A DNA stretch of 64,000 nucleotides, taken from NCBI RefSeq assembly GCF_963921235.1, contig NC_086108.1:26848001-26912000 (forward strand), written 5' to 3'. The notes beneath the pieces are model-generated. The model saw nothing but the letters and a program-made list of their open reading frames with translations. It did no database searches and had not been told where the DNA came from. This stretch comes from Mobula hypostoma. Taxonomy: Eukaryota. Shown one piece after another: positions 3,513 through 55,000 of this stretch. Positions within the stretch are counted from its first letter, which is position 1, and each line of letters starts with the position of its first letter. The position numbers and the translations under genes were made by a program.

Positions 3513-4057
3513 TATAACACCCCGGGAAAGCTTTCACTGCCAATGTAATGGTTTCTCTGTAGCAGCAGTGTGTTTGGGTTATGACTGGAGATAACGGGGG
3601 CTTTGGAATATGCCGCATCCAGTGAAGGAATGTTCTTCCTTCTTGTGTGCCCGAGAGCAAGGAATTCACGGGCTTTTGTTTGGCGGAAGATGGAGAGAGA
3701 AGACGCTAGAATGGAGAAGTCGTAAACTGCAGGATTGAGTGGGCGTAGAATAGGGTCGAGAGTCGACGATGCCTGGGGGAAATCGATGGAGAACGAACGG
3801 CCGGGAAAATCATGAGCTCCAACGTGCGCATTAGACTGTTTCATTAAATGCATCCTTTTCTTTTTGTTTTCTTTACTAACCCTCTTAGTCAAATTAAGAA
3901 TTATAAAGCTAAATCATCAATTGCATATGGTGTACTGTTTGTTATTTCATGATACTGATTTGTAACAGGGGAAAACATCACGCAGCATCCACACAAACAA
4001 GATTTCATAAGTTTGGCGGGATGGAGACTGATGCGGCCGACCAAACCTAGGGTTACA
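3513..4057 (+). repeat. 5' LTR of Gypsy element
   Basis: Direct repeat of 9858-10414. Begins TATAACAC (mutated TGTAA) and ends GGGTTACA. Confidence 0.92.
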
Positions 4058-4061
4058 ATTG

Positions 4062-4081
4062 TGGGGGTATCATTCCAGGAT
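4062..4081 (+). promoter_or_regulatory. Degenerate primer-binding site, tRNA-Pro-like
   Basis: TGGGGGTATCATTCCAGGAT just after the LTR resembles the canonical tRNA-Pro PBS TGGGGGCTCGTCCGGGAT. Confidence 0.6.
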
Positions 4082-4155
4082 TGATTCCGTTGGATGCTGT
4101 GTGATTGCCCTGAGCATTGAAGCTGTGGGTTGTGTGTTTTAAGTCTGTGCTAGTA

Positions 4156-5330: not shown

Positions 5331-5489
5331 CGCAAGAAGGAGAGTGACCCCCCCCCCCCCCGGGTACCTGAGCAGAGAGAGTCGTTGGGAAAACTTAGAG
5401 GAGAACAGCTTGGTGACTCTGGGGGAACACATTCCCAGCAATATACCAAGGAACCCCAAAAGCGAAAGACCCCATTTCTGAAGGCCTAG

Positions 5490-8400: not shown

Positions 8401-9460
8401 GGTGCATATAGATTTCCTGTCAATAGAGCCAGATGCCAGCAACATGGCGAATGTCTTAGTCATCACGGATCACTACACCCGATATGCGCAGGCTTTCCCT
8501 ACCAAGGACCAGAGGGTGTCTACGGTGACCAAAGTGTTATGGGAGAAGTATTTTGTTTATTATGGTCTTCCCAGGTGGATACCCAATGATCAGGGATGGG
8601 ATTTTGAAAGCCAACTCATCCATGAGTTACTGAGTTTGCTTGGAGTCGAGGAGTCGAGGACTACTCCCTATCATCCGCAGGGTGATCCCAGTCCAAGGGG
8701 TTTAATCAGACCTTGCTAGACATGCTAGAGACCTTGCAGATCAGCAAGAAGAGCAGGTGGAGTCAACATATTGGACATCTGGTCCACAGTTACAACTGTA
8801 CCCAAAATAAAGCTACCGAGTACTCGCCGTATTACCTGATGTTTGGGTGCGAGGCAAGCTTGCCCATTAACCTCTGTTTTGGAACTGACGAGGGCGACCT
8901 ACCAGCGAAGACTTATTTGAAGTATGTGTCTGACATGAGAAGAGAGCTGAAAAGGGTTTATGAAATAGCGAGGGTCATGGCTGCCAAACAGGATCAGGGA
9001 AATAAGAGGAGGTACGATCAAAACGTGAGGTTCTTCCAACTCCTGCCGGGAGACTGAGTCCTCATAAGGAACTTGTGGCTACCTGGGAAGCATAAGTTGG
9101 CTGATCACTGGGTGGCTGAGCCTTATGTGGTGGATAGTCAGATGCCAAACATATCAGTATTCCGGGTGAAACCAGAGGATGGGAATGGGCCTGTCTAGAT
9201 TCTCCATCAGAACCACCTTCTGCCTCTGGGACAAGAGGTGCAGATTGACCCAGAGCCTGACCTGGAGCCTACGCTTAGTAAGAGGACTCTGCGGCAATGT
9301 GGGGCAACACCAGCTGGAGAGGTTAGGCTGGGCCCTGCCCCTGAATGGGATATTGATTTGGAGGATAAGGACATGGAGCTGTGGTATATGCTGCCTTTTA
9401 TTAACTCCCCACTGATTGAAGAAGAGGCTCCCAACCCTTCTCACGTTTGCTGAGTCAGGT
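5490..9460 (+). pseudogene. Gypsy pol remnant (protease, RT, RNase H, integrase)
   Basis: Protease AMLIAGSQVTLL (decayed LDTGSQV); RT SPYASPIVVARKKNG...PRIEDAL and VLVHLDDLIVF; RNase H LHTDANREGLGGVLYQ...EKNYPIHKLEFLAL; integrase LVHIDFL...ITDHYTRYAQAF...TTPYHPQGD. Confidence 0.92.
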
Positions 9461-9838
9461 GAAGTGGGGCTGGGGGGTGGAATCTGTGGGCAGCCTGGGT
9501 TGTAGCGGGACCCTGCAAGGGATGAAGCAGAGCTTAGCCAGGGGATAGAGGGGTCTGAGTTGTAAGTGGGCATGAGTAATAAGTCAGAGGAGGCCTTGCC
9601 AGGCAGACCAGAAGTATTCCCAGTAGTGTCAGAACATGAAGAGGTGGATGAGGGGGTATGGAGGTTTCACAGAATCAGGAGACCACTGGACAGGCTGGCA
9701 TATGTAGCATCAGGGGAACAGAGTGTGGCCCCGACCGCTTTGGGAAGCTATGTCATTGCCTTTTACACGTGGGTTAGAGTTTGTGTTCTGCAGGAAGGGT
9801 TGGCAAATTAACTCAGTCATAAGGGCATGACTAAATTT

Positions 9839-9857
9839 GGTGGGGGGGGGGGAAGAG
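9839..9857 (+). promoter_or_regulatory. Polypurine tract
   Basis: GGTGGGGGGGGGGGAAGAG immediately before the TG of the 3' LTR. Confidence 0.85.
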
Positions 9858-10414
9858 TGTAATGCCCTGGGAAAGGTTTCACTGTTAATGTAATAATTTC
9901 TCTGTAGCAGCAGTGTGTTTGGGTTATGACTGGGGATAACGGGGGCTTTGGAATGTGTGGCATCCAATGACGGGAGGTTCTCCTTTCTTGTGTGCCCAAG
10001 AGCAAGGGATTTGCGGTGTTTTGTTTGGCAGAAGATGGAGAGAGAAGATGCCAGAATGGGAAGGTCATAGACTGCAGGACTAAGTGGGCATGGAATGGGG
10101 TCAGGAGTCAATGACGCCTGGGGAGAAGTTGATGGAGAACGAACGGACAAGAAAATTGAGCTCCAGCGTGAGCATTAGACTGTTTCATTAAAATGGGCCT
10201 TTTTTTTGTTTTCTTTACTAACCCTCTAGTCAACTTGAGAATTATAAAGCTAAATCGTCTAATTGCATTTGGTGTACTGTTTGTTATTTCGTGGTACTGA
10301 TTTGTAACAGGGGAAAACATTATGCAGCATTCACGCAAACAAGATTTCTCAAGTTTGGCGGGGTGGAGAGTGTCTTCCCCTGGACTATGGTTGCTGACCA
10401 AACCTAGGGTTACA
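9858..10414 (+). repeat. 3' LTR of Gypsy element
   Basis: TGTAATGCCC...GGGTTACA, a direct repeat of 3513-4057. Confidence 0.92.
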
Positions 10415-10790: not shown

Positions 10791-11321
10791 CAGGCAGGTC
10801 TCCGGATACATATCCAATAACATAACCTTAACGCTAACATTGAATGAAGAAAATCCTAACAGATGTGCAGAAGATTGGGAATGTGCTTGAAATATTGTTG
10901 GAACATAAATCCATGTCTGTTAAAGGTAGTTGAGTGTGGCAATATGCTGGAGGCTAAATCAGATGAACTTCCAGAAACAATGCTGACACATCAGTTGTTT
11001 TAATGTGTTTACTTCACCAGCTTATTAAGTGGTACTTGGAGCAAAACAACATTGGAACAGTGAAGCAGGAATGGATGATTTGGCCCCTTGAACCAGGTTA
11101 TAGTTAATGTGACATTGGTTCACTTGTTGCTTTTAAAAGAGGTTTATAAAACAGATTGCTAAAAATCTGATAATTTCAGATTTGAAATTGACAATCATTT
11201 AAAAAGTAATTATATTTCATTTCAGGCAGTTTGTGCTTTCACCACAGTTTCAGAGAACATAAGACCATATTTACCATGCCAATTGCCCTTAAATATTCAT
11301 TTTAAGTTTCAGTTCATGTAA

Positions 11322-13337
11322 AGTAACACACAAAAATGTTGAAGGAACTCAACAGGTCAGGCAGCATCTATGGGCTCCCTTCATCAGGACAGGAAAAGAA
11401 GGAGAAATGACCCAGAAGATGAAGGTGGGGGGGAGGGAATGAACTACAAAGAGTAATGTGACTGGTGAATCAAGGAGGGTGGGGAGTGGTGAAGTAGGAA
11501 GCTGAGAAGTGATAGATGGATAAAGTAAAGGGCTGAGGGGAAAGGAAACTGATAGGAGAGGAGAGTGAAACACTGGAGAAAGAGAAGGAGGAGGGACTCC
11601 AGAGGGAGATGATAGGTAGGGGAGGAGAAAAGGAAGGGTAGGAGAAGAGTCAGAATGGGGAATAGAAGAGGAAATAAGGCAGAGAGGGAGAAATTACTGG
11701 AAGCTGGAGAAATCAATGTTCGTGCCATCAAGTTGGAGGCTACTCAGATGGAAGAAGAGGTGTTGTTCCTTCAACATGTGAGTGGCCTTACATGGATCAA
11801 CATGTCAGAATGGGAATGGGGAGTGGAATTAAAATCCTCCTTGTTGCAGACAGGGTGAAGCTGCTTGTGAAAGTGTTCCCCTGGTCTACATGTGCTCTCA
11901 CTGACATAGAGGATACCGCATCAGGAACCCTGGATATTGTAAATGACGCCAACAGACTGGCAAGTGAAGTCTTGCCTCACTCGAAGGGATGTTTGAGGCC
12001 CTGAATGGTGGTGAGAGAGGAGGTGTAGTACTTGTGCTGCTTTCAGGGGTAGGTGGCAGGAGAGGGGTCAGTAGGGAGGACAAATGGACAAGGGAATCAT
12101 GGAGAGGGTGAACCCTGTGGAAAGCAGAGAGTGGGGGAAGGTAAAGTAGTGCTTGGTGGTAGGATCCAATTGAAAATGATGCAAGTTGCAGAGAATGATG
12201 TGCTGGATGCAGCACCTCATGATTGTGGTAGGTAAGGACAAGAGGAACTCCATCCGTGTTAAGGCGGTAGGAAAATGAGGTGATCTCGGATGTGCAGAAA
12301 ATGGAGGAAATGCAGATAAGGGCAGCATCAATGGTAAAGGAATGGAAATCCCATTCTTTGAAGAAGGACATCTCAGATGTTCCAGAAAGAAAAGCAGCAC
12401 AGAGGCAGCAGAAATGGAGGAACTGAGAAAAGGGAATGGCATTTTTACAAGTGACAGTGTGGGAAGGAATATTTTCAAGATAGTTGTGAGAGTCAGTAGG
12501 TTTATAAAAGATCTCAGTAGGCAGTCTTTCTCCAGAGATTGAGCCAGAGAGATTGAGAAGTGGGAGAGATGGACCAAGTGAACAAGGGCAGGGTAGAAAT
12601 TGGAGGCCCAGTTAATGAAATAGATGAGCTCTGCATGGGTGCATGAAGTGGCACTAATGCAGTCATCAGTGCAGCAAAAAAGAATTGGGGGCATTACCTG
12701 GGAAGGGTTAGAACATGGACTGTTCTACATAGCCAGTAAAAAAAGCAGGCGCGGCTGGGTCACATGAAGATGCACATGGGTACACATTGGATTCAGAGCT
12801 AAAAGAGAAACTGTTGAGAGAGAGGACCAGTTTCACCAGGCGGAGGAAGGTTGTGTTGAATGGGAATTGATGAGGTCTTTTGCCTTGAAAGAACTTGAGA
12901 GCTTTAAGGTCTTTTTGATGAGTTATAGAAGTGTATAGGGACTGGACATACATAATGAAAATGAAGCGATCAGGGCCATGGAACTGGAAGTTGTTGAAGA
13001 GGTTGAGAACATCTGAAGTGTCATGGATGTAGTAGGAAGGGACTGAACTAAGGGGGATAAATGGACTTATATGGACACAACTTTAGTGGACAGGAGCAGA
13101 CAGAAACAATGGGCCTAACTGGTCAGTCAGGTTTGTGGATCTTGAGTAGGGGATAGAAATGAACAGTGTGGAGCAAAGAAACTATGGGGGTGGCGGCAGT
13201 GGATGGGAGGTCTCCAGATTTGATAAGGTTGGTGATGGTATGGGAGGCAATGGCCTGAGTGGGTCCTCTTCAAAGGTAAGTAAGTGGAGGAGTCTAAGAG
13301 TTGCCACCTGGTACTAACAAGATAGAGGTCAGGACCA
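11322..13337 (-). mobile_element. Penelope-like element (RT plus GIY-YIG), decayed and 5'-truncated
   Basis: ORF pieces YVQSLYTSITHQKDLKALKFF, CCTDDCISATSCTHAEL (YIDD region) and VPLVLTYH. The 3' part is homologous to the GIY-YIG region and pyrimidine-rich UTR of 33021-33815. The hammerhead motif is partly deleted at ~11372-11392. Confidence 0.85.
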
Positions 13338-14701: not shown

Positions 14702-16029
14702 TGTCATGGTCCGGATCGGGGCCCCTTTAAATTTAACTTGTTTATGTTACGATCCGGACTGTTGATTCCCTGTTTTCCCGTGTCTCTCGACTTTGGTGAT
14801 TAGAGGCAATTAACACTCGGCTGAACTAGTAGTTTATAGTCTCCGGCTCTCAGCTGTTCGGTGCGGGAGCGTCTGCAAAGTCATCCAAGGTACAGTGTAC
14901 CGATGTCATCTGGCCGGAGCAAGCCTAGTCTCTGCCCGAAGCGAGTGCCGGTAATTCACCTTTCCTTACTGGAACAACCCTGTCCAGTTACCTCGCCAAA
15001 GCGAGCCTGTAAAGTTTCTTTACCGAGGTGGGTCTGTCAGTTAACTCGCCGGAGGGAATCAAGAACCGCTGTCTGCTGTTCCCGGGCCGAGTTGAGAGCT
15101 CGCCACTACCCGGAGGCTCCAAGTCAAGTCCTGGCTCCGGGGGCATTCAAGTACCAAGTCAAGTCCTGGCTCTGGGGGCATTCAAGCACCAAGTCAAATC
15201 CTGGTCCTGGCGGCTTCTGAGTTCTGAGTCAAGTCCTGGCCCTGGCGGTCTGTGATTCCTGTCCTTCCCCCTGTCTGAGTCCCTTCTCTGCCCCTCTCGC
15301 CTCTAGTCCTCATCTGCAGCCCTCGCCTGCCCTTCAGTCTAGTTCTATCGCCGGAGCTAGATAGGTATTGTCTGGTGTGCTTTCATTTTGGTCTTGTCCT
15401 GTCCTCGCCTCCGTGGGGTAAGTCTGGCCATTTTGCCGTTGCCCCGCGGAGAGTCACGTTTTGTCTCGTCTTGTCCTCGCCTCCGTGGGGTAAGTCAGGC
15501 CATCTTGCCGTTGCCCCGCGGAGGGTCATGAGTCCCGGCCCTATGTCCTGTACCCAAGGAGGGGTCCCGGCTCTCTGTTCTGTGTGTGAGTCCTGGCCCT
15601 ATCTCCTGTACCCAAGGAGGGGTCCTGACTCTGTGTTCTGTGTTTGTGTCCATGGTTCCATGTACCTGCTCCCTGAGACCGAGGCTCTGTGTTCCCATGT
15701 TCCTCCTCTCCCTAGCCCATGTCATGCCCTTGCCTGGTTCTGGGGTCTGATCCCGAGGCAAGACCCAGGTACTGGGTCCTTGCCCAGTCTCTGGCTCGGA
15801 GTCCATACCCTAGCCTCTTCATGTCTCTTCTAGTTCTGGGAGCTGATTCCGAGTCCAAGCCAGACCCTTGGTCCCAGCCGAGTTGTAGTCCTGAGTCCTA
15901 GTCCAGTTCGTTATTTCCTGCTCCTGCCTTGCTCTCCTGTATTGAACAATAAACTAAATCTATGTAACTTCACAAGATGTGTCTTGCATTTGGGTCCACC
16001 CTTGCTCCCAAAGCCCCGCCCCTATGACA
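14702..16029 (+). repeat. 5' LTR (1328 bp) with internal minisatellites
   Basis: Direct repeat of 16215-17545. TATA-like TTTATA at 14833-14838 and AATAAA near 15948. Confidence 0.9.
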
Positions 16030-16214
16030 GAACGCTTCCGCCAAACATGGACCCAGCAGACACAAACTGCTTTTTCCAAACACTTTTCAGCCTGAAAGTT
16101 AAGGGGTTGTTGTTCTGTTTTGCCCGCCGTCCAAATTCCCCCCACCTACCCGGGTCATCGATAATACAGGCAAATCTGTTGTTCGCCTGGAGGCTCCCAT
16201 TGGGAGGGGGACAC

Positions 16215-17545
16215 TGTCATGGTCCGGATCAGGGTCCTTTTAAATTTAACTTGTTTATGTTATGATCCGGACCGTTGATTCCCTGTTTTCCCATGTACCT
16301 CGACTTTGGTGATAAGAGGCAATTAACACTTGGCTGAACCAGTAGTTTATAGTCTCCGGCTTTCAGCCGTTCGGTGCGGGAGCGTCTGCAAAGTCATCCA
16401 AGGTACAGTGTGCCAATGTCATCTGGCTAGAACAAGCCTAGTCTCTGTCAAAGCGAGTGCCGTTAATTCACCTCTCCTCACCGGAGCAACCATGTCCAGT
16501 TACCTTGCCAAAACGAGCCTACAAAGTTTCCTTACCGAGGTGGGTCCGTCAGTTGACCCGCTGGAGGGAATCAAGAACTGCTGTCTACTGTTCCTGGGCT
16601 GAGTCGAGAGCTCGCCACTACCCAAAGGCTCCAAGTCAAGTCCTGGCTCCGGGGGCATTCAAGCACCAAGTCAAGTCCTTTCTCTGGTGGCATTCAAGTT
16701 CCAAGTCAAGTCCTGGCTCCGGCGGCATTCAAGCACCAAGTCAAGTCCTGACTCTGGCGACATTCAAGCACCAAGTCAAGTCCTGTCCCTGGCAGCTTCC
16801 CAGTTCTGAGTCAAGTCCTGGCCCTGGTGGTCTGTGATTCCTGTCCTACCCCCCTGTCTGAATCCCTTCTCTGCCCCTCTCGCCTCTAGCCCTCATCTGC
16901 AGCCCCCACCTGCCCTTCGGTCTAGTTCTATCACCGGAGCTATATAGGTATTGTCTGGTGTGCTTTCTTGTTGGACTTGTCCTGTCCTCGCCTCCGTGGG
17001 GTAATTCTGGCCGTCTTGCTGTTGCCCCGCGGAGAGTCATGTCTTGTCTCGTCTTGTCCTTGCCTCCGTGGGGTAAGTCAGGCCATCTTGCCGTTGCCCC
17101 ACGGGGGCTCATGAGTCTCGGCCCTATGTCCTGTACCCAAGGAGGGGTCCCGACTCTGTGTTCTGTGTTTGTGTCCATGGTTCCATGTACCTGCTCCCCC
17201 AGACCGAGGCTCTGTGTTCCCATGTTCCTCCTCTCCCTAGCCCATGTCATGTCCTTGCCTGGTTCCGGGATCCAAGCCCGAGGCAAGACCCAGGTACTGG
17301 GTCCTTGCCCAGTCTCAGGCTCGGAGTCCATACCCTAGCCTCTTCATGTTCTGGGAGCCGATTCCGAGTCCAAGCCCAGACCCTTGGTCCCAGCCTAGTC
17401 GTAGTCCTGAGTCCTTGTCCAGTTTGCTATTTCCTGCTCCTGCCTTGCTCTCCTGTATCGAACAATAAACTAAATCTAAGTAACTTCACAAGATGTGTCT
17501 TGCATTTGGGTCCACCCTTGCTCCCAAAGCCCCACCATTGTGACA
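16215..17545 (+). repeat. 3' LTR (1331 bp) with internal minisatellites
   Basis: Direct repeat of 14702-16029. Six ~35-bp CCAAGTCAAGTCCTGGC units from ~16631. Confidence 0.9.
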
Positions 17546-19495: not shown

Positions 19496-19767
19496 TACAT
19501 AAAGAAGAGAAAATCTGTAGGTGCTGGAAATCCAAGCAACACACACAAAACACTGGAGAAACTCAGCAGGCCAGCCAGCATCTATGGAAAAGAGTACAGT
19601 CAACATTTTGGGCTGAAACCCTTGAGCAGGACTTGAGAAAAAAAGATGAGAAGTAGATTTCATCTCATCTATTCCTTATCTTTTTTGCTCCAGTCCTGCT
19701 GAAGGGTTTCAGCCAGAAATGTTGACACTACTTCTGCTGAGTTCCTCTAGCATTTTGTATGTGTTGC
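19496..19767. mobile_element. Palindromic mini-insertion of two inverted Penelope 3' termini, each with a degenerate hammerhead motif
   Basis: Arms 19598-19633 (-) and 19692-19726 (+) both read AGTCCTGCT(G/C)AAGGGTTTCAGCC..AAATGTTGAC. A 12-bp flanking duplication AAAGCTAATCTT sits at 19484-19495 and 19768-19779. Confidence 0.82.
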
Positions 19768-20299
19768 AAAGCTAATCTTGAAATTGTTAACTGGGGTCTG
19801 CAAGAGGTACAATCCACAAACCTGCTAAGCAGAAATGATCAGCATGCAAGCAAGGCTTAGGTGGGATTTTCACACCAATCCTGAAGGCCAGTGCAAGAGC
19901 TGTTCACATTAGCAGCATGTCAGGCAACAAACCCAGCCTTGTAAAGGAACAATACAGACTGAACAAGAAATTACAAAATAATACAGCAGGTTATTGGAGC
20001 CTGAAGCTTGCCAGCACTGAATCTGCGCCTCTGTTCAGAACTGGTGTCAGATGCACCACATGCTTTTCTAAGAAGATTGGTGAGCAGTGAGCAGTTAGTA
20101 ATGACAAGAAAAATGAGGTAGGAAATACTTAACCATCAGCACTGTACAAACACCAGCATGCAACCAATGCCTGCCATTTGCACTAGACAAAAACCTGGCA
20201 CCACTTACAAACATAAGAGACAAGGTTTTAAACATATATGGGAACACTGAAATAATCCAATGATTAAATGCAAGAATTTTGTAGTTCTGATCTGTTCCC

Positions 20300-29092: not shown

Positions 29093-32000
29093 TGTTGTGT
29101 ATTTAATATTTCAGAAATATGTGAGTAATATTGTAAATCTATTGTTTGATTAAGCATTCTTTATTTTTTAAATAATTTATTACAATTTAAATAAAATCAT
29201 GTAAAATAATTTATTACAAATTTAAGTAAAAGCACATTCTATTATGACGTGGTGGCATATGTTATTACACCACCACATCATAATAGAATGCCTCAATAAA
29301 GTAAAAAAAAAGAAACTAGAATACATGCTTATCCCAGTCTCACTGTGTTTTTCTTCCAATTAATTTCTGGAGATACAAAGCCTTACTCAAGGAAGTTTTA
29401 AACAAACTCAAACCAGCTAACGACCTGTTGAAGCACAGTGAGACATTCGAGTTTTAAAAGAAGCGCAGTGAGAAGTTCAAGTTTTAAAAAAGGCAGAAAA
29501 TGAATGAGTTAATAAACAGTGAGTACTGGGTGAAAATAATTATAAATAAATAAAAAAAGAGAACAGAAATGGCTGGCTACATCGGAAAGATAGAAGCAGT
29601 TTATTGCACTACATTACTGGTTGATGGATACTGAATGCATTGAGCAGTATTTTAAAAGCACATGAGAATTGAGTGCCAAGCTTGCTGAGAGCTATTGGTG
29701 GAAGAGCATATAGTTTGCTTAGAAATTTGACTGCTCCAACAAACCAGCTGAAAGGAGCTTTGCTGATATCATAAATGTAATGCAGGAACATTTAGAACCA
29801 ATGTCATTGTTGACTACAGGTTTCATAAGTGGAATCAAAAGGAATGGGAGTCCATTTCAGCTTAGTAGCTGAATTGAAGAGATTGTCTGAGCATTCTCAG
29901 TTCTGTGATAGGCTTAATGACACACCAAGAGATTGTTAAGTTTGTGGAATTTTACAAGAAAACATTCAAAAATGCCTCCTAACTGAAGAGCAACTTATTA
30001 CAAACTGCAGTTGAAATTGCTGTATCAATGGAAATGGCAGCCAGAGACGCAACTGATTTGCAATCAGGAAGGAAAGTGAGCATGAACAAAGTTACAACAT
30101 CTAATCAGAAGCCGACCTGGCCAAAGAGATCATGTCACCATTGTGGCAGGAGCTCACCTTCTCCAGATCAATGCAGATTTAAAGGCAAAACTTACAGAAA
30201 ATATAATAACGTAGAACACATACAAAAAACATTCCAGGCAGACAAAAATAATGGACTGCACAGAGAAGAGAAAAAGATAAAAGGTCAATTTGCAGTTTCA
30301 AAAAGATAACTAATCTGCACACTATTGGTGACAAATCTGAAAATAATGAGAGTGACACAGGAATGGGTAGCCTTGAGATTTACATTGTGAAAACCAACAG
30401 AGCCAAGCAACATGGCTTACACCAGATGTGAATGGCAAATTAATTAAACTGGAACTAGACATCAGCTTGGCTGTTTCAGTCATTCCACAAAATGGTTTTG
30501 AATGGCATTTCAAAGATACTGAACTGAAGCCTGTAAATATCCAGCTAAGAATATACTGGAGAAAAAATAACTCCTGTGGGAATAGCATTCATCACAGTAA
30601 ATGGCACATTAGGCTTGTATGTGGTAAAACCAGGAGAGCCGGAATTATGGGGTCATGGTTGGCTGAGACAACAATATGATTAAACATCCATCCACTATTT
30701 GCTTTCCACATCCCCTGCAATAAAGTCAACTGAAAGTGAATTAAGAAAGGTACTGAATAATGCCACAGCAGTATTCAAGGATGGCACTGGAAAATTCAAA
30801 CATATCTTGGGTAAAATAGTGTTAAATGAGAATGCCACATCCATTTTACAAAGCATATCTGGTTCTTCTATCATCCAGGATAAAATAGACAGTGAGCTAG
30901 GTCACATGGAGGCGGAAGGAATTCTTTCCAAAGTTGACTGGAACCCATGGACAATGCCGATGGTCCCAGTAGCCAAGAAGAATGGGTCAGTCAGGAGCTG
31001 TGGTGATTTTAAGGTCACCATCAAACCAGCACTGAAAGTAGATAATTGTCCCCTGCCCAGGATAGAGGATATCTTTGCAAACCTTTCTCGAGGGAAACTT
31101 AGCTGGACTTAGCTGAAGCCTATTTGCAGATAGAGATAGAAGAAAAGTCCAAAGTGTAGTCAATTGCGACAATAGGTTCCTGCAAAACTTTGCTACTGTG
31201 CTCCACCCCTTGAACTCATTACTACAGATCAGAAAGAAATGACAATGAACAAAGCAGCGTGAGATAGCTTTCCAAAAGGTAAAGGAAATAATGATATCAG
31301 ACACTGTACTCACACATCATGATCCACATGTTCCAGTGAAGCTTGCTTGTGATGTTTTGCCTTATGGTATAGGTGCAATCATGTCACATATTATGAGTGA
31401 TGGAAGTGAACACCCATAGCCTTTGCATCAGTTGCCCTTACTGCTCCAGAGAAAAATTATGCACAGGTGGATAGGGAGTACTCAAGTCTGTTTTAGGGTG
31501 TAAAACATTTTGACTAGTGAAAAAGGATCTAATGCTTTCCTGGTATACATGATGAATAAACACTTCTAGGGCTTCCAGTCGGGTACAGGTATCAATTTTA
31601 ACCAATGTTTTGATGGAAAACTCTGCCATCTTCATCAGGGATAATGATTGGGCCTGTCTGGTCTGGTGGTATTTACACCCCGTCATCTTCCCTCCTGATT
31701 GATTAGTCTCATCCGATCAGATTTCTGCTATCCCACCTTGTTTAAAATCAAATTTCAGTTCTTACTTAGAGCGAGGCCTTCACCCTTATTGAAATTATTT
31801 TCTTCTAGTTTTATTTCAATGGTTTCCTTTAGCAGGGGTTCCAACAGCCATTGGCATGTCTCAGTATTTTTGTACCATCGAAGTCAGTCCTATGGCCATC
31901 GCGAATGCAATGTTCTCCTACCACCAATTTCTCTGGGTACCCCAAATGGATATGTTTCCTGTGCTCCTTGATGTGGGTTTCCACCGTACATCCCTTCTGA

Positions 32001-32665
32001 CCAATGTGTGCTGCTTACAGGGAATCCTGTAAACGCCAGCTATCCTGAGTCCTGGGTCATCATTCGCACACACACGTTGTGATTTGAGCTACCTTACGAG
32101 GAAATAAGATGATTACACACAATGTTCCTACAGAATGGCTACAAGATAAAGGAAATCAATCAGGCCAATGGAAAAACCAGGAAACTTAACAAAAGGGAAG
32201 AACCTGCAGGTACCGCCCACCTTCCCTACATTTCCGTGCTTTCTGGAAGGATTCCCAGGATCCTAAAGAAATACCAGATTAATACCATCCACAAACCTGT
32301 AAGGAATTGATCATCAACCACCAGTTTCCATTTTCAATCCACAGAAAGGCATTCCGTGTACAGCAGCATGAATGCAGGAATGGGCTCCGGTTCTTGGAAG
32401 ACATAACTCCAATCTGGAACTTAGGAGGACAACTAATTGTGGAAATGCTGATGGATTACTCTTGGGAAAAGAAGTACCTGAAAAATTTACATAAACAGAC
32501 ACTCCTCTTGACGTATTCTCCCTAATGCAAATTGAAAGTCTCCCTAATATGGCAAAGATGATCAAAGGGGAAACCAGAAAAGACCACACTCTGTCTCAAG
32601 TCTACATAGCCGCCCAAAATGGCTGGAATATGCAGCAGAAATTCCAGTTCCACCATTTTTACCAG
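29093..32665 (+). mobile_element. Mag-like Gypsy LTR retrotransposon, heavily decayed, internally deleted and 3'-truncated
   Basis: AT-rich LTR-like segment from TGTTGTGT (29093 to ~29378). gag starts at 29569 (MAGYIGKIEA); double zinc-knuckle remnant CHHCGRSS..DQCRFK; protease VNGKLIKLELDISLAVSVI; RT PMVPVAKKNGSVRSCGDFKVTI..PLPRIEDIFANL; RNase H PVKLACD..YGIGA. No integrase core or 3' LTR is seen. Confidence 0.85.
31540..32370 (-). mobile_element. Second Penelope-like family: 3' end on minus with an inverted (+) upstream segment, nested in the Mag-like element
   Basis: Hammerhead-like motif on minus at 31602-31640. Degraded GIY-YIG C-terminus on minus to ~32050. Plus-strand linker ORF 32122..32310 (LQNGY...AHLPYISVLSGRIPRILKKYQINTIHKP). 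Confidence 0.7.
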
Positions 32666-33020
32666 CAGCCTCCTTCTCTTCTTAAAGAGTGAAGTTTCAT
32701 TTGCAATTTTCTTGTCCTCCAGATCCAACCCAGAATTTAGTTATTCTTGAAAAATCATTACTAATACCTCCAAAATCTCTTCTGCTACCTGAACTACCTC
32801 TTCAGCATCATTTTCCAGCAGTTCAATATCCACTCTCACCTCTCTTTTAAACTTTATCTATCTGAAGAAATTTTTAGTATCCTCTTTAATATTATTGGCT
32901 AGCTTTTGTTTGTTTTCCATCTTTATATTCCTAATGACTTCTTTGGTTGCCGTCTGCTGCTTTTTAAAAAGCTGTCTAATCCTCTAACTTCCTACTAATC
33001 CTTGCTGTATTGTATGCTCT

Positions 33021-33815
33021 TTCCCACCATTACCACCATTCAGGGCCCCAGACAGTCCTTCCAGGTGAGACGACACTTCACCTGTGAGTCGGCTAGGGTG
33101 ATATACTGCGTCCGGTGCTCCCGATGTGGCCTTTTATATATTGGCGAGACCCGATGCAGACTGGGAGACCGCTTTGCTGACCACCTACGCTTTGTCCGCC
33201 AGAGAAAGCAGGATCTCCCAGTGGCCACACATTTTAATTCCACATCCCATTCCCATTCTGACATGTCTATCCACGGCCTCCTCTACTGTAAAGATGAAGC
33301 CGCACTCAGGTTGGAGGAACAACACCTTATATTCCGTCTGGGTAAGCCTCCAACCTAATGGCATGAACATCGACTTTTCTAACTTCCGCTAATGCCCCAC
33401 CTCCCCCTCGTACTCCATCCGTTATTTATTTATATACACACATTCTTTCTCTCTCTCTCCTTTTTCTCCTTCTGTCCCTCTGACTATACCCCTTGCCCAT
33501 CCTCTGGTCCTCCCCCCCCGTCTTTCTTCCCAGACCTCCTGTCCCATGATCCTCTCGTATCCCCTTTGCCAATCACCTGTCCAGCTCTCGGCTCTATCCC
33601 TCCCCCTCCTGTCTTCTCCGATCATTTTGGATCTCCCCCTCCCCCTCCCACTTTCAAATCTCTTACTAACTCTTCCTTCAGTTAGTCCTGACGAAGGGTC
33701 TCGGCCTGAAACGTCGACTGTACCTCTTCCTAGAGATGCTGCCTGGCCTGCTGCGTTCACCAGCAACTTTGATGTGTGTTGCTTGAATTTCCAGCATCTG
33801 CAGAATTCCTGTTGT
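33021..33815 (+). mobile_element. Young 5'-truncated Penelope-like element: GIY-YIG endonuclease, 3' UTR and hammerhead ribozyme
   Basis: FTCESARVIYCVRCSRCGLLYIGETRCRLGDRFADHL...PVATHFN...EEQHLIFRLG, then a frameshift to SLQPNGMN. A pyrimidine-rich UTR and a CTGACGA...GAAAC motif follow. Confidence 0.93.
33684..33719 (+). ncRNA. Minimal type I hammerhead ribozyme motif
   Basis: AGTC-CTGACGA-AGG gtctcgg CCT-GAA-ACGT-C-GACT: intact catalytic core, stem I AGTC/GACT, palindromic stem III ACGT, predicted cleavage after GUC (33715). Confidence 0.8.
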
Positions 33816-33949
33816 ACACCCATATCAGAATTGCTTTTCCTCTAGTGGGCTTAGCTTCGAGCTGCTCTGAAAAGCCATCTCATAGGATTTCTACAAATTC
33901 CCTTTCTTGGGAGACAGCACCAATTTGATTTTATGAATCTACTTGTATA

Positions 33950-35215: not shown

Positions 35216-36641
35216 ATAGAACATAGAACATAAAACATAGAATAGTACAGCACAGTACAGGCCCTTCGGCCCACAATGTTGTGCCGACCCTCAAACCCTG
35301 CCTCCCATATAAGCCCCCACCTTAGATCCCTCCATATACCTGTCCAGTAGTCTCTTAAACTTCACTAGCATATCTGCCTCCACCACTGACTCAGGCAGTG
35401 CATTCCACGCACCAACCACTCTCTGAGTAAAAAACCTTCCTCTAATATCCCCCTTAAACTTCCCACCCCTTACCTTAAAGCCATATCCTCTTGTATTGAG
35501 CAGTGGTGTCCTGGGGAAGAGGCACTGGCTATCCACTCTATCTATTCATCTTATTATCTTGTATACATCTATCATGTCTCCTCTCATCCTCCTTCTCTCC
35601 AAAGAGTAAAGCCCTAGCTCCCTTAATCTCTGATCATAATGCATACTCTCTAAACCAGGCAGCATCCTGGTAAATCTCCTCTGTTCCCTTTCCAATGCTT
35701 CTACATCCTTCCTATAGTGAGGTGACCAGAACTGGACACAGTAATCCAAGTGTGGCCTAACCAGAGTCTTATAGAGCTGCATCATTACATCGCAACTCTT
35801 AAACTCTATTCCTCGACTTATGAAAGCTAACACCCCATAAGCTTTCTTAACTACCCTATCCACCTGTGAGGCAGCTTTCAGGGATCTGTGGACATGTACC
35901 CCCAGATCCCTCTGCTCCTCCACACTACCAAGTATCCTGCCATTTACTTTGTATTCTGCCTTGGAGTTTGTCCTTCCAAAGTGTACCACCTCAGACTTCT
36001 CCGGATTGAACTCCATCTGCCACTTCTCAGCCCACTTCTGCATCCTATCAATGTCTCTCTGCAATCTTTGACAATCCTCTACACTATCTACAACTATCTA
36101 CAACACCACCAACCTTTGTGTCGTCTGCAAACTTGCCAACCCACCCTTCTACCCCCACATCCAGGTCGTTAATAAAAATCACGAAAAGTAGAGGTCCCAG
36201 AACAGATCCTTGTGGGACACCACTAGTCACAATCCTCCAATCTGAATGTACTCCCTCTGCCATCACCCTCTGCCTTCTGCAGGCAAGCCAATTCTGAGTC
36301 CACCTGGCCAAACTTCCCTGGATCCCATGCCTTCCAACCTTCTGAATAAGCCTACCATGTGGAACCTTGTCAAATGCCTTACTAAAATCCATGTAGATCA
36401 CATCCACTGCACTACACTCATCTATATGCCTGGTCACCTCCTCAAAGAACTCTATCAGGCTTGTTAGACACGATCTGCCCTTCACAAAGCCATGCTGACT
36501 GTCCCTGATCAGACCATGATTCTCTAAATGCCTATATATCCTATCTCTAAGAATCTTTTCCAACAGCTTTCCCACCACAGATGTAAGGCTCACTAGTCTA
36601 TAATTACCCGGACTATCCCTACTACCTTTTTTGAACACGGG
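35216..36641 (-). mobile_element. Young 5'-truncated CR1 LINE with a nearly intact RT domain
   Basis: [57 protein letters not shown], then LYKTLVRPHLDYCVQFWSP. Frameshifts at ~36083 (10-bp ACTATCTACA duplication) and ~35546. (CATAGAA)n tail. Confidence 0.95.
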
Positions 36642-37099
36642 AACTATGGAATACCTTATCACTACTGCACTCCTCTTTTTTCCCCCTTCTAAGCTACGTA
36701 GCCAGATTCAGTGCTAGAGAACCATTCTCTGTGGCTTTTCCTTTGTAGATCAGCACCCAACGGTATCCAAAGTGGTATACTTATTATTGAGTGGAAAGCC
36801 ACAGGGGTACTCTGTGCTGGCTGCCTATTCCCTTTTCCCTATCCTGGCAGTCACCCAGTTGTAGCTCCAGTTCCTTAACATGGTCCTCTGCCTGTGTTTG
36901 CCTAATCCTGTTAACCCAAAGCTGGACCACTCCAACAACAGTTGCTCTGCTTACACCCCCTTTCTTTTTATTGGCTCAAATAAGACTCACTCCCAATGAG
37001 ACTTGCAGTTTTCAAATGGTTTCTGCCCTGCAGGATGATGATCTGTCAATCACTAGTTCAACAATAAGTCACTCCCAGCGACACTGGTAGTTTTCAGAT

Positions 37100-44900: not shown

Positions 44901-47768
44901 TGTAGGGAGGCAGTCACCCTCGATTTCCGAAGGCAGGTAACTGTGTGACTATCTGCAGAAGGAAGGGAAACGGGTACAGAGCACCCCTATGGCTATTCCC
45001 TTCAATAATAAGTATATAGTTTTGGATACTGTTGAGGGGGACAAGCTACGAGAGGGGAGCCGCAACACTGTGGCTCAGAAGAGAAGAAAAGTGAAGAGGA
45101 CTGCAGTAGCAATAGGAAATTAGAGGAATAGAGATGAGATTCTGTGGACCTGATAGAGACATCCAGATGGTATGTTGCCTCCCTGATGCCAGGGTCAGGG
45201 ATGTCTCTGATCAAGTCCACGTCATTTAAAGTGTGAGGGTGAGCATCCAGAAGTCTTGGTACATATTGGCAACAATGACAGGTATGAAAAGCGAAGAGGT
45301 TCTGAAAAGAGATTTTAAGAAAGGCATGGAGGTTCTGAAGAGAGATTTTAAGAAAGGCATGGAGGTTCTGAAGAGAGATTTTAGGAAGCAAGGTAGAAAG
45401 CTGAAAAGCAGGACTGCCAGGGTGGCAATTTCTGATTTGCTGCCTGTACCATATGCCAGTGAGGGTAAGAATAGAAGCATTTGGCAGATAAATGTGTGGC
45501 TGAGGAACTAGTGCAGGGGGCAAGGATTCATTGGGATCACTTCTGCGGAAGTTAAGACTTGAACAAAAGGGACAGGTTATACCTGAACCCTAGGGGGGGC
45601 CAGTATTCTTGAAGACAGTTTTGTGAGAGCTGATCAAGAGGATTCAGACTAATTTGGCAGGGGGATGGGAAAAGAAGTGATAGGGCTGAGGATGAAGCAG
45701 TTTATTTACAAACAGAGGCAGGGTATAGTGAGGCTGCTAGCAGGGGAAGGTTGATGATAAGGCAAAATTGCAGTCAGTAAGATGAGTGGCAACATAAAAG
45801 GGAGACAAAATTGATAGAGGTGATGAAAACAGGACTGAAGGTGCCTTATATGAATGCATGCAGTATACGGAATAAGGTAGATGATCGTGGAGCACAGTTA
45901 GAGATTGGCAGGAATAATGTTGTGGATATCACTGAGTTGTGGCTGAGGGAAGATTATATGTGGCAGTTTAACATCCAAAGATACAAATTGTATCGAAAGG
46001 ACAGGCACATAGGCAAAGGGGGTGGGGTGACTCTGATGGTAAAAAGTGAAATCAAATCCTTTGATAGGGATAGCATAGGATCAGAAGACATAGAATGCTT
46101 GGGAGTAGAGTTAAAAAACTGCAAGCGTAAAAAAGACCTTGATGGCATTTATATACAAGTCTCTGAATAGCATCAAAGATATGGTATACAAATTACAACA
46201 GGAGGTAGAAAATGCATGTCAAAAGTGTAATGTTATGATAGTCATGGGGGATTTCAATATGCAGGTAGATTGGGAAAAGCATGTTAGTTCTGGATCCCAA
46301 GAGGGAGAGTTTTAAGAATGCCTACAAGATGTTTTTTTTGGAGTATTTCATGGTTGAGCCCACAAGGGAAACAGCTATTTTGGATTGAGTATTGTACAGT
46401 GAAGCGGATTTGATTAGGGAGCATAAGGTGAAGGAACCCTTTAGGGACCAGTGGTCATAATATAATAGAATTCACCCTGCAATTTGAGAGGGAGAAGCTA
46501 AAGTCAGATTTAGCAGTACTGTATTACAGAGGAATAAAGTGGGCTACAGAGCTGGCCAAAGTTGATTGGAAGAGGACGCGAGCAGGGCTGAAGGCAGAGT
46601 AGCAATGGATGGAATTTCTGGGAGCTATTTGGAAGTCACAGGATAGGTACATTCCAAAGAAGTATTCTAAAGGCTGGATGATGCAACTATGGTTGACAAG
46701 GGAAGTCAATGCCAACATAAAAGCCAGAAAGAGGGCATATAATGGAGCTAAAATTACTGGGGATTGGGAAGCTTTAAAAAACTAATAGAAGGCAGCTAAG
46801 TAAGTCATATTGAGAGAAAAGGTGAAATACAAAGGTAAGATAGCAAATACTATGAAAAAGTATACCAAAAGTTTCTTCAGATATATAAAGAGTAAATGAG
46901 AGGTGAAAGTAGACATCAGACCACTGAAAAATTATGTTGTGGAGGTAACAATGGGGGACAAAAAAATGGTGGATGAACTGAATAAATATTTTGTATCAGT
47001 CTTCATGGTGAAAGGCACTAGCAGTATGCCAGATTTTTGAGAGTGTCAGGGTAGGATTACGTGAAGAATCCGAGGTACAAAGGGACTTGCGAGTCCTCAT
47101 GCAGGATTCCCCAAAGGTTCATTTGCAAGTTGAGTCGGTAGTGAGGAAGGCAAATGCAGTGTTAGCATTCAGTTCTAAAGGACTAAAATATAAAGCCAAT
47201 GATGTAATGTTGGGGCTTTATAAGGCACTGGTAAGGCCTTACTTGGAGTATTGTGAACCGTTTTCGACCCTTTATCTAAGAAGGATGCGCTGACATCGGG
47301 GAGGGTTCAATGGCATTCACAAGAATGATTCCGGGAATGAAAGGGTTACCATACGAGGACTGACTGATGGCTTTGGACCTGAGCTCACAGGAATTCAGAA
47401 GAATGAGGGACAATCTCAATGAAATTTTGAAATATTGAATGTTGAAAAGCTTCAATAGACTCGATGTGGAGATGATGTTTCCTATGAAGGGGGAAGTCTA
47501 GGACCAGAGTGCACAGCCTCAGGATACAGGGGCGTCCCTTTAGAATGGAGATGAGGAGGAACTTCTTCAGCCAGAGAGTTGTGAAAGTAAAATTCCTTGC
47601 CACAGATGGGTGTGAAGGCCAAGTTTGTGTATATTTAGTCAGGGCATGAAGTGTTACAGGGAAAAGAAAGGAGATCGGAGCTGAAAAGGAAATTGATCAG
47701 TCGTGATTAAATGGAGAAGCAGACTCAAAGGGCCTAATGGTCTAATTCTGCTCCTATATCTTATGCTC
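44900..47768 (+). mobile_element. Old CR1 LINE (ORF1 esterase, endonuclease, C-terminus; RT deleted near 47050)
   Basis: ORF1 EVLKRDF...KLKSRTARVAISDLLPVP..INVWL; EN GLKVPYMNACSIRNK..DITELWL...RKDRHIGKGGGV; C-terminus LYKALVRPYLEYC; 3' UTR CTGCTCCTATATCTTATG. Confidence 0.85.
45296..45383 (+). repeat. 33-bp tandem repeat (~2.7 copies, EVLKRDFKKGM) inside CR1 ORF1
   Basis: GAGGTTCTGAA(A/G)AGAGATTTTAAGAAAGGCATG units start at 45296, 45329 and 45362. Confidence 0.9.
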
Positions 47769-49107: not shown

Positions 49108-50456
49108 CAGTGGTGTATCTAAGGTATGGCAGGTATGGCACGTGCCCCGGGTGGGGGGCACTGAGCAGTTTCTATTAAAGTCAGACAAGCCATCCTCGGA
49201 TAGTAATAAAATAATTTTCTTCAGATGCATGATCTGTCTTTGATTATCATGGGTGAGAAGCACTAGGATGGCCTTATTTCAGAACATTGTGTAAGAAGAC
49301 CATGAAACATTTCTCCACGAAGAAGAAGGAAAGTGGAGCTGAAGGACAGAAGAGATGAAAGTTGGAGGCGGAGGAAGCCAGGAAGTCGAGTAAGTTCTTT
49401 ATGCCCTTCTTTGAAAGCCTGGAACAAGTAGTTCGGCACGTTCCATGAAGTCGCCTGCACCTGCTACAAGTTTGTTAGAATCCGAAGGTGGATCAGGTAC
49501 AAATGCGTCACAAGCCAAGGAGGTAGTCAAGTCAGATAAATCCGAGTATGATGAGATTAACAGTGAGGCTGCCACAGAGAACGTGGACATGACAGGAGGG
49601 GTAGACGATGGTGGTGGTGGTGATGTTGAGTTTATTGATGAGATTTTACCTGACTAGATTGAAAGAAGTTGAAAGACGTCAGAGACAAAAGAAACGAATG
49701 GCTGATGAGAACTCGAGAGACGCTGGATTACAGCTAAGGAGGAAATGGAAAGAGTGATGAAGGGAACACTCGACCGTCTTCACAGAGAAATGGACGAAAG
49801 GTTTGCTCGTTTGCACGACACTGACGCCAAGTTTGGGTTCCTTCTCGATGTCGAGGGACTGTGTTACGGCACCAACAGTAACTACCTAAAGAAGAAGTGC
49901 AAAAATTTGGGCGAATTGTACAGCTCTGATGTTTATGGGCAGCTGCTATATGAAGAAATTTTGGATTGCAGAATGTTGCTATCCAGGTGGGTCAAGGTGA
50001 AAATATCAAGACCTGAAGAGCTTCTTGAACTTATTGTTCAGTATGGAGATGAGAATGTCTTCCCCAATCTTCGTATTGCTATTCAGATAATCCTAACCAT
50101 TGCTGTTTCCATCGCCAGCTGTGAGAGATCATTCAGCAAGTTAAAACTAGAACTTTCATATTTGAGAGCCTCCATGGGTCAAGGCAGACTCTGTGATCTT
50201 GCTCTGCTGAGTGTAGAAAGAGAAGAAACTGACTTTGATCACATCATAGACCAATTTGCATCAGTGAAAACAAGGAAGATGCAGTTATAATTTTCATGTA
50301 GTGCCATAATTTGTTAATTAAAAGATTAACGAGCTTGACTTGTATTTTTGAGCTGATATTATGGTAAAGTTATCTAAAAGATGGGTGTCAGATGTTTGGA
50401 CAGGGGTGCAATTTCAGTGTTTGCCATAGGCGCTATTTTCCATAGATACCCCTCTG
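49108..50456 (+). mobile_element. Internally deleted hAT-superfamily DNA transposon
   Basis: Perfect 8-bp TSD CCTGGCAG (49100-49107, 50457-50464). TIRs CAGTGGTGTATCTA and TAGATACCCCTCTG. Contains a transposase C-terminal ORF. Confidence 0.93.
49745..50290 (+). pseudogene. hAT transposase C-terminal fragment (dimerisation domain, ZMYM1/Tip100-like)
   Basis: FPNLRIAIQIILTIAVSIASCERSFSKLKL..SYLRASMGQGRLCDLALLSVERE. The upstream catalytic core is missing. Confidence 0.88.
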
Positions 50457-51699: not shown

Positions 51700-54045
51700 G
51701 GAGCCATGACCAGGTGACATAAGTAACAGAAGGTTTGGCCCCATGCATTTTACGCTTGCTTGGACCAACAGAAGATGGAGGCACCTTCACAATCCTCACA
51801 GACCCTGATGAACCTGTGATTTCAGTCTCTGAGGTAAAAGTGAGAGCATCCTTCAGGAGGGTGAACGCACAAAAATCATTTGGCCCAGACAGGGTACCTA
51901 CCTGAGTACAGAAGACCTGTGCTAATCAACTGGCCAGAGTGTTTACTGACATTCTTATCTTAGCAGACTGAGATAGCCATATTCTTCAAACAGGCTTCAA
52001 TCACAGCAATGCCCAAAAGGAACGTGGGCAACTCCTGCCTAAGGAGTGACTTGGATCCACTCCAATATGGCAACCCTCACAACATTTCCGAGGATCTCAC
52101 CTGGTCCCTGAACTCCTCCATCCTGATCAAAAAGGCGCAATAGTGCCTTTATTTCCTCTGGAGCATTAAGAAAGCTCACCTCTATCCCAGGATACTGATG
52201 GACTTTTACCGCTGTACCATTGAGAGCATACTCACCAACTGCATCTCAGTGTGGTATGGCAATTGTCCCGTATCGGACCGCAAAGCACTCCAGCGAGTGG
52301 TGAAGACTGCCCAGTGGATTATCGGCACCCAATTGCCCACCATTCAGAACATCTACCATAAACGCTGCCTGGGCAGGGCGAAAAGCATTATCAAGGATGC
52401 ATCTCAACCTAACCATGGACATTTTACTCTCCTCCCATTCGGTAGGCACTACAGGAGCCTCCGCTCCCGCACCAGCAAGCACAGGAAGAGCTTCTTTCCT
52501 GAGGCTGTGACACTGCTGAACCTCACATCACAATGTTAAGCAGTATTACATCCGTATTGTACTGTCTCAGTACTTTTATATTTGTGTGCTGTAGCTCTTT
52601 TTTTTATTCACAGTTATTTTGTAAATAACACTATGCTTTGCATTTCTGGTCAGATGCTAAATGCATTTCTTTGGCTTTGTATCTGTACTTGGCACAATGA
52701 CAATATAGTTGGAACTAATCTAATCTAACAGGTCAACAGCAGATGCCATCTCATCAGCTCTTCACTCAGCACTGGAACATCTGGACAGTGACAACAGCTC
52801 AGCCTTTAACACTATCATCTATGCAAAACTGATCAATAAATTCTAAGTTCTAGGCTTCAATGCCTTGTATAGCTGGATTCTTAATTTCCTCACTTGTAGA
52901 CCCCAGTGAGTTCAGATTGGCAACAACATCTCCTCCATAATCACCATCAGTACAGGTGCACTATAAGGCTGTGTGCTTAGCCCCCTGCTCTACTCACCTT
53001 ATACTTATGCCTGTGAGGCTAAGTACAGCTCCAATGTCATATTCAAGTTTGCTGACGACACCACTGTTTGTTGGCCAAATCAAAGGTGGTGACAAATCAT
53101 CATACAGGAGGAAGATTGAAAATCTGTTTGAAAAGTGTAACAACAGTAAAGTTGTTCAATGTCAGCAAACCCGAAGAGCTGATTATTGACTATAGGTGAA
53201 AGAAATTGGGGGTCCATGAACCAGTGCTCATTAGAGTATCGGAAGTGAAGAAACACAGTAAATTAAATTGCTGGGCATTATCGTTTCAAAGAATCAGTCC
53301 TGGGACCAGCACATAAATGCCACTTCAACGAAAGCACAGCAGCACCTCTCATTTTTCAGAAGTTTGCACAGATTTGGCGTGTCATCTAAATCTCCGACAA
53401 ACTTTTATAGATGCACAGTGGAGATAAACTTGATGAATTGCATCACAGCAGGTCTGGAAGCACCAGTGCCCAAGAATGGAAGATGCTACAAGAAGTGGTG
53501 GATACAACCAAGTCCATCACAGGAAAAGTCTTCCCCACCACTGAACGCACCTACAAAGAGTGCTGCCACAAGGAAGCAACATCCATCATCAAGGATTCCC
53601 AGCATCCTGGTCATGCTCTCTTCTCAAAGCTACCAGGAAGAGGGTACTGGAGCCTTAGGTATTATACCACCAAGTTCAGGAACAGTTATTACTCTTCTAC
53701 CATCGGGCTCCTAAACCAGCTTGGACAACTACACTCACCACAACCACATCATTGAACACTATCTTTGGACTCACTCAATAGGACTCTACAACTCCTGTTC
53801 TCAGTTTTATTTATTTACTTGTTTGTTTGTTTGTTTGTTTGCTTATTTATTTATTACGTTTCTTTTTGTATTTGCATCGTTTGCTGGTTTTTGTATCTGT
53901 GTAGTTTTTCATTGATTCTATTGTATTTCTTTGTTCTACTGTGAACACTTGCAAGGAAATGTATTTCAGGGTAGTATTTGGTGACATATACATTCTTTGT
54001 TAGTAAATTTACTTTGGACTTTGAACTTCTGATTTGGACTTTGAT
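51700..54045 (+). mobile_element. Rex1/Babar LINE (RT and C-terminus) with a younger Rex1 nested in it
   Basis: AAGACCTGTGCTAATCAACTGGC (KTCANQLA); GGCTGTGTGCTTAGCCCCCTGCTCTACTCA (GCVLSPLLYS); AAGTTTGCTGACGACACC (KFADDT); (ACTTTG)-type tail. Confidence 0.85.
52082..52727 (+). mobile_element. Young Rex1/Babar 3' fragment
   Basis: ORF 52198..52539 FYRCTIESILTNCISVWYGNC..DRKALQRVVKTAQ...SFFPEAVTLLN, followed by a (CTAAT)n tail. Confidence 0.9.
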
Positions 54046-54229: not shown

Positions 54230-55000
54230 GATGAAGTGAGAAGCTGGGAGGCGATAAGTGGAAGAGGTAAAGTGTTGTAGACAAAAGAATCTGATAGGAG
54301 AGGACAGTGGATCATGGGAGGGTGGAAGAATGAGGGACACCAGGGGGAGGTGATGGGCAGGTAGGAGAAAAGTAGATGTAAGATGACAGTCAGAATGAGG
54401 AACAGAAAAAAGAAGGAACTCGGAGGGTGAGGAACTACTAGAAGTTGGAGAAATCGTTCACTCCAGCAGGTTGGAGGCTACTCAGATGGAATATGAGGTT
54501 TTACTCCTTAAACCTGAGAGTGGCTTCATTGTGCAGTAAATGAAGCCAGGAATTAAAATGTACTGCCACTGGGAAATCTTGCCTTCCGTGGCAGTCAGGG
54601 TAAAGGTGCTGGTCGAAGGAGTCCCCCAAACTATGCCCAGTCTCACTGATGTAGAGGAGGCCATAGCAGGCGCACTGGATACAGTAGAGGACCCTGACAG
54701 GATTGTAGCTGAAGTGTCACTATGGCTGGAAGGGTTATTTGGAACCATGCGTAGTGGTGAGGAAGGTGGTATAGGGGCAGTTGTAGCATTTCTCCCACTT
54801 GTAAGAGTAAGTGCAGGAGTGAGATCAGTGGTGAGGATAAGAGAGAATAAGAGAGTCACAGAGAGACTAAAAGCAGTGGAAAGCTAGGAGGGAAAGAAGT
54901 GTTTAGTGGTAGGATCCACTTGAAGGTGGCGGAAATTACAGAGAATGATGTACTGGATGTGGAGGATTGTGGGGTTGTAGATAAGGACAAGAAGAACTGA
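54230..55000 (-). mobile_element. Old Penelope-like fragment (GIY-YIG region and UTR)
   Basis: Colinear with 11480-12245 and with the reverse complement of 33021-33650. Confidence 0.75.

Follow-up and report, generated by a model that had tools for sequence, protein, structure and literature searches.

Metazoan Penelope-like elements (PLEs), including the fish elements Xena, Poseidon and Neptune, carry minimal hammerhead ribozymes in their pseudo-LTRs (Cervera and De la Pena 2014, PMC4209133), and the motif described here from a Mobula ray resembles them. Like those motifs it is of type I, has CUGANGA followed by a bulged base and G10.1, reads GAAA-C-G-U-C without a loop 3, has a 4-bp helix I and a pyrimidine-rich 5' flank, lies after the end of a GIY-YIG open reading frame (ORF), and occurs as a single 3' motif in a 5'-truncated copy (PMC4209133). 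Stem II is unlike that of most PLE motifs in being short, with 4 bp, two G-U pairs and a G-U closure. None of the 56 rows in Fig. S3 of that paper comes from a cartilaginous fish.

A second described system is PAc, the Poseidon of Anolis carolinensis (PMC11167929), which like the ray element is a vertebrate EN+ PLE with a hammerhead in its pseudo-LTR and an optional tail of 30-40 bp. The two differ in that the ray element is placed with Neptune, and protein-assisted cleavage was assayed for PAc whereas for the ray family it is a prediction. Animal non-LTR retrozymes (bioRxiv 10.64898/2026.07.22.740005), one chondrichthyan among the species from which hammerhead retrozymes have been reported, also have repeats akin to PLE pseudo-LTRs, with a hammerhead of type I in them. 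Retrozymes consist of non-coding tandem units, each with a hammerhead, whereas the copy here stands alone and includes 360 bp of endonuclease ORF, and a retrozyme was rejected for that reason. In Penelope of D. virilis, a spliceosomal intron of the pLTR has its 3' limit where helix I starts (PMC4209133), and pyrimidines followed by AG lie at the same edge in the ray; the intron was demonstrated in D. virilis, whereas the ray sequence merely resembles it, and neither a donor in this copy nor a spliced read was found. A literature search, with most subscription journals outside its scope, found no paper on this ray PLE family, and the words Penelope and ribozyme are absent from the available text of a preprint on shark and ray genomes (bioRxiv 10.1101/2025.06.08.657570).

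The window, meaning the whole 64-kb stretch of Mobula DNA that was analysed, contains a complete minimal type I hammerhead motif of 36 bases on the plus strand at 33684-33719, read directly from the sequence (Table 1). The site has the core CUGANGA...GAAA with an NUH cleavage triplet, and the palindrome ACGU occupies positions 15.2-16.2 with no or minimal loop 3. The pattern CTGANGAN{8,30}GAAACGT matched once in the window against an expectation of 0.02 (a match in 2 of 100 shuffles), and a structure-aware scan output this site alone. Core, GUC site, helix I and loopless ACGU were exactly as the first-pass annotation had described them from the sequence, and the pattern scan agreed.

Table 1. 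Features of the hammerhead motif and of the element carrying it (positions in the 64-kb window).
Feature	Position	Strand	Basis
5'-truncated Neptune-type PLE, ORF end and 3' pseudo-LTR, 785 bp	33032..33816	+	contig-depth edges; older-copy alignment
C-terminal GIY-YIG endonuclease fragment, stop TAA 33390-33392	33032..33392	+	translation, Pfam, protein matches
Pyrimidine-rich spacer, ORF stop to ribozyme	33393..33683	+	sequence; older copies with similar C/T-rich spacer
TACTAAC, pyrimidine tract and two AGs (33680-81, 33684-85); candidate 3' splice site	33664..33685	+	sequence
Helix I, AGUC/GACU	33684-33687 paired with 33716-33719	+	sequence
Catalytic core CUGACGA (C3-A9)	33688-33694	+	sequence
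Bulged A and stem II GGGU/GCCU, CUCG loop, closing pair G10.1-U11.1	33695-33707	+	folding probabilities; published register
GAAA	33708-33711	+	sequence
Palindromic stem III ACGU, loopless	33711-33714	+	sequence
GUC cleavage triplet, predicted cut 33715/33716	33713-33715	+	sequence; numbering as in PMC4209133
Pseudo-LTR remainder	33720..33784	+	alignment A1; common to all 4 window copies reaching it
Optional 3' 'tail', about 32 bp	33785..33816	+	alignment A1; in copies A (this one) and B, not C or D

One detail of that description had to be changed. Stem II had been drawn as AGG/CCU, a register ruled out by the ViennaRNA probabilities for the 36-mer, in which G33696-U33707 had p=0.94 and A33695-U33707 p=0.02. 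In the published consensus, too, CUGANGA is followed by a bulged base, with G10.1 next (PMC4209133, Fig. S3); here A33695 is the unpaired base between 9 and 10.1, and stem II starts from the paired G33696. The Rfam hammerhead models, which had been proposed as a check, gave no match at E up to 10 in either 12 kb or 251 bp; the identification is based on the published descriptor and on the element around the motif. With an endonuclease fragment upstream on the same strand, a fit to the consensus and a loopless ACGU, the evidence supports the annotated reading, in which the 36 bases form a type I hammerhead of the minimal kind and of dimer-type design, situated in a PLE's 3' terminal repeat.

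Contig depth rose and fell at the edges of this element, with loose contig ends before 33030-33035 and behind 33815, and an older copy in the window (11321-12012) began to align at 33032. The Pfam GIY-YIG match scored 21.3 bits (E=3.3e-4), under the cut-off of 22.6, and tblastn placed a frame break at 33345/33346. Protein comparison gave 11 matches among 44 candidates, eight of them Mobula or Hypanus gene models with 71-90% identity. The closest relatives (P0001-P0003) have a CX2-5CxxC linker, CKRNKCYTC in P0001, and our copy starts just after it; this linker is a mark of Neptune/Nematis PLEs (PMC8557442). P0003, which contains a reverse transcriptase (RT), aligns with window copy C across RT and endonuclease (EN), and having the GIY-YIG endonuclease C-terminal, after the RT, is the arrangement of a Neptune/Nematis-type EN+ PLE. 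We infer Neptune rather than Nematis from reports of Neptune in vertebrates. The hammerhead lies about 290 bp past the GIY-YIG stop on the same strand, the location of a pseudo-LTR, and the longer RT+EN copy C has the same layout of endonuclease, then hammerhead. The short tail corresponds to the optional 30-40 bp tail described for PLEs (PMC8557442, PMC11167929).

No target-site duplication was found at the two junctions, where the longest common word was 5 bp. The flanks (32795-33023 and 33813-33949) both align to one older repeat at 46258-46947, and about 330 bp of that repeat are absent where the element inserted, a loss that may date from the insertion itself.

The PLE family is very large. 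Contigs aligning to 1,051 bp around the element numbered 251,752, 209,260 and 17,687 in three runs, at a threshold of 82% identity or more, and these counts are not copy numbers. Among the 40 listed of 140 differences to family contigs, 27 fell inside the element; in run X1, 12 of these were carried by at least 85% of the depth and 18 by at least half, placing divergence from the family majority at a minimum of 1.5-2.3% of 785 bp. None of the 40 lay in 33621-33816, with some differences uncounted in X1 and X5. The element has 26 CpG in 785 bp, an observed/expected ratio of 0.56; the ratio for the window is 0.28, and two older copies have 0.12 and 0.25. The description of the copy as young was thus upheld, both by the at least 12 majority differences in 785 bp and by its CpG richness; the copy, 5'-truncated and frameshifted, is nonetheless dead. 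The claim that it retains its CpGs held in part: the 36-mer keeps four, and on the other side 2 of the 18 majority differences, elsewhere in the copy, are CpG decays, and at 33707 the copy has U in place of the C that some relatives show within a CpG.

Contig edges also bore on the history of the motif. Many contigs matched from exactly 33684, or up to 33721, and then diverged, with 810, 609 and 115 loose ends before 33684 and 566 and 451 behind 33721, so the motif forms a conserved island between subfamilies. The motif is common to other subfamilies, which diverge from this copy on either side of it, and this is a sign that selection acted on it in the active lineage rather than at the 33684-33719 locus. 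A few contigs had inverted or backward joints starting from helix I's 5' edge (33685/33773, 33794 to 33684 and 33720 to 33684).

Position 11.1 (33707) is U in this copy, and the closing pair of stem II is a G-U wobble. The consensus closing pair is G10.1-C11.1, at over 80% (PMC4209133), and counting by eye the 56 representatives in Fig. S3 gave 43 G-C, 8 G-U, 3 A-U and 2 U-A pairs. In the window, copy B has C and copy D has A (alignment A1). A protein search covering this position gave 4 matches among 15 candidates, two of the four reaching 11.1; codons of antisense gene models indicated a likely U in P0014 and C in P0015, and those of P0011 a base other than U. Position 33707 was absent from the 40 listed of the 140 differences to family contigs. 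U11.1 is either a subfamily trait or recurrent CpG decay, and on this comparison it would not exclude activity. Private decay disabling this copy was rejected as its origin, a Mobula copy probably sharing the U and G-U closure occurring in published rows. Across helices I and II, 22 of 24 cells were paired with no compensatory pairs, among only three informative copies, all decayed, of the four window copies compared.

Pattern, structure-aware and relaxed scans found no intact partner hammerhead in the 64-kb window. By relaxed search and alignment, the other remnants (19695 plus, 31639 minus, copies B and C) all had broken or deleted cores; the one at 19695 lies 14 kb upstream with a core change, and that at 31639 belongs to another family. 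Copies B and D form an inverted pseudo-LTR pair of the same broad family at 19505-19785, with both cores broken and a tail only in B; an inverted pair with a tail at one end only is an arrangement described for PLEs (PMC8557442). An older and longer copy with RT and EN (11321-13270, minus strand) has a deletion through the 3' half of its hammerhead, and another at 54232-54998 (minus) stops before the hammerhead. A second, older PLE occupies 31555-32310, with an endonuclease end at 31790-32045 (minus) and an inverted piece at 32090-32310 (plus). It also has a minimal hammerhead, near 31639 (minus), which has decayed, with GAAA broken. By its motifs we take this element to be Poseidon-like.

Family loci were also sought elsewhere with a pattern scan, which returned none in viral contigs, none in genome contigs and four in metagenome contigs. 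The four had no blastn match to the window and were rejected as family members. For L001 and L003, both in GC-rich DNA, a chance match seems likely, and about 2 kb downstream of L002 there is a weak match to a PLE RT. L002 (158-192) and L004 (16-50) are minimal-hammerhead-like motifs in AT-rich metagenome contigs, that of L004 with a bulged A and G-C closure.

Folding predictions did not favour an active monomer. In the 36-mer alone, ViennaRNA paired GACG of the core with CGUC of the cleavage site (p=0.97), and in longer context the upstream pyrimidine leader was predicted to capture the core, so that either way the monomer would be blocked. Helices I and II with an open core cost a predicted 7.8-9.9 kcal/mol in context, and two 36-mers had predicted energies of -9.5 kcal/mol as the double hammerhead, -20.0 as a pair of hairpins and -28.3 as their best duplex; these nearest-neighbour energies give no credit for non-canonical core or tertiary contacts and are biased against the active fold.

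Published work on related motifs gives a similar picture. Two minimal motifs in one transcript were proposed to pair their palindromes into stem III, and in S. mansoni a minimal monomer showed no detectable cleavage and dimers and trimers little (PMC4209133); a review, citing Lunse et al., gives the same dimer picture. In Anolis, cleavage by the PLE hammerhead required the protein of the element; the hammerhead was dispensable for insertion in vitro, and RNA-seq had no reads starting or stopping at its cut site (PMC11167929). Among nine retrozyme dimers from Xenopus, one underwent very efficient cleavage in vitro (bioRxiv 10.64898/2026.07.22.740005), and hammerhead activity in PLE-related repeats is therefore not always low. 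5'-truncated PLEs show only the 3' hammerhead (PMC4209133, Table S1).

We consider it very probable that the lone copy at 33684-33719 is an inert relic that does not cut host RNA, and that the hammerhead of its parent element cuts the element's own RNA as a dimer. Judging from other species, such motifs would need a dimer and be slow even then, and one vertebrate PLE needs the element's protein. In the parent element, cleavage would probably occur only when two copies pair through ACGU, and would probably be helped by the element's protein. The lone copy is predicted to be inert because dimer pairing is likely required for cleavage. It would have arisen by ordinary 5'-truncated retrotransposition, and the intact core would reflect recent insertion, not retention by the host.

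An alternative that we regard as unlikely is that the ribozyme is gated by splicing, with an intron of the full-length ray element ending at the AG by helix I and TACTAAC (33664-33670) as its branch point. From the splice consensus, TACTAAC would presumably serve as branch point and the AG as acceptor. Counting both strands, the window has nine occurrences of TACTAAC, and the match was a post hoc one. Copies B and D retain the pyrimidine tract and the AG where helix I begins, but not TACTAAC, copy C is without the AG, and the whole 290-bp spacer is pyrimidine-rich. As a check on exonisation from this acceptor, the 38-aa sense frame was compared with proteins and gave no matches; the 48-aa sense frame gave 2 matches among 10 candidates, neither starting at the AG. 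If this reading were true, splicing would remove the pyrimidine leader predicted to capture the core and so switch the hammerhead on, and through the same acceptor the motif could become part of host mRNAs at numerous loci.

Ray gene models P0003 and P0011-P0017 contain pieces of this PLE in sense or antisense. The models with such pieces include DIPK1C, CHID1, STARD3NL, CoA synthase, Tim8A, TNFRSF5-like, STAC3 and galectin-9-like isoforms, and the pieces may be exonisation or annotation artefacts.

It is very unlikely that the motif is kept mainly for some other role, as splice acceptor at helix I, protein-binding site or ORF start, with cleavage secondary or lost. The splice-acceptor-like signal does adjoin helix I, as the D. 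virilis intron end does (PMC4209133), and in Anolis the ORF starts within the hammerhead and catalytic mutants still insert (PMC11167929). However, the full catalytic consensus is kept here and not just the AG, the 15 listed of 544 joints include no spliced one with its end at 33682 or 33686, and gene model P0012 reads through both AGs.

Host RNA could also be cut in trans, if two transcripts carrying the motif paired through ACGU and helix I and cleaved read-through host RNA, perhaps only with PLE protein; we give this no better chance than the preceding role. The core is intact, the extreme abundance of the family would supply partners, and protein assistance has been published for the Anolis element (PMC11167929). 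Half of the sampled words were present in three RNA-like runs, their RNA status being an automated guess; such runs consist of contigs and cannot show RNA ends, and the raw-read run X21 covered a CT-rich stretch only, with 39 reads. Mobula gene model P0012 has the whole motif in sense within a predicted mRNA, and P0011 and P0013 carry its 3' half. Against trans cleavage, the persistence of sense-strand copies in predicted mRNAs fits tolerance, the inactive duplex or two hairpins are predicted over the double hammerhead (with the bias noted above), the Anolis reads do not end at the cut site (PMC11167929), and no host gene was found among the ORFs of the window that were screened.

The search for host genes found no host-gene domain in 300 of the 407 non-self-repeat ORFs of at least 45 aa plus 11 others, a screen that short exons could escape, and it is possible that the PLE copy lies inside a host intron. 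Its output consisted of transposon-type domains, two ALKBH8_N matches and one SMN_YG-box below cut-off. The ALKBH8_N matches, at 52144-52536 and 60987-61415 (both plus), were above the Pfam cut-off; this model often matches LINE remnants. Elsewhere in the window were decayed elements of LTR-retrotransposon type at about 3500-10400 (PNMA, RVT_1, RNase H and integrase domains) and about 30000-31500 (RNase H-like domain), a LINE-type reverse transcriptase fragment at 35549-36707 (minus), a hAT dimerisation domain fragment at 49709-50287 (plus), and two long self-similar blocks of about 51% GC at 14702-16029 and 16215-17545 (within 14702-17545).

The strongest form of host cleavage, in which the monomer alone would be active enough to cut any read-through transcript, is scarcely credible: every core nucleotide is present and the wobble is not disqualifying, G10.1-U11.1 being found by eye in 8 of 56 published representatives (PMC4209133), but the loopless stem III cannot form within one copy, the one published monomer assayed showed no detectable cleavage (PMC4209133), and a blocked fold is predicted. 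The first-pass proposal that the motif could cut any plus-strand host transcript is unsupported, because its premise needs a partner and the window has none intact; no host gene was detected in the ORFs screened, the published monomer was inactive, and the Anolis hammerhead needs protein.

We thus return to an inert copy of an element whose hammerhead probably acts on its own RNA as a dimer. The motif class has been known since 2014 and is extended here to a Neptune-type family of rays. The single copy at 33684-33719 adds nothing special, and the value of the family is statistical: with very many near-identical copies in one vertebrate genome, it offers a strong test of whether PLE hammerheads cut RNA in vivo.
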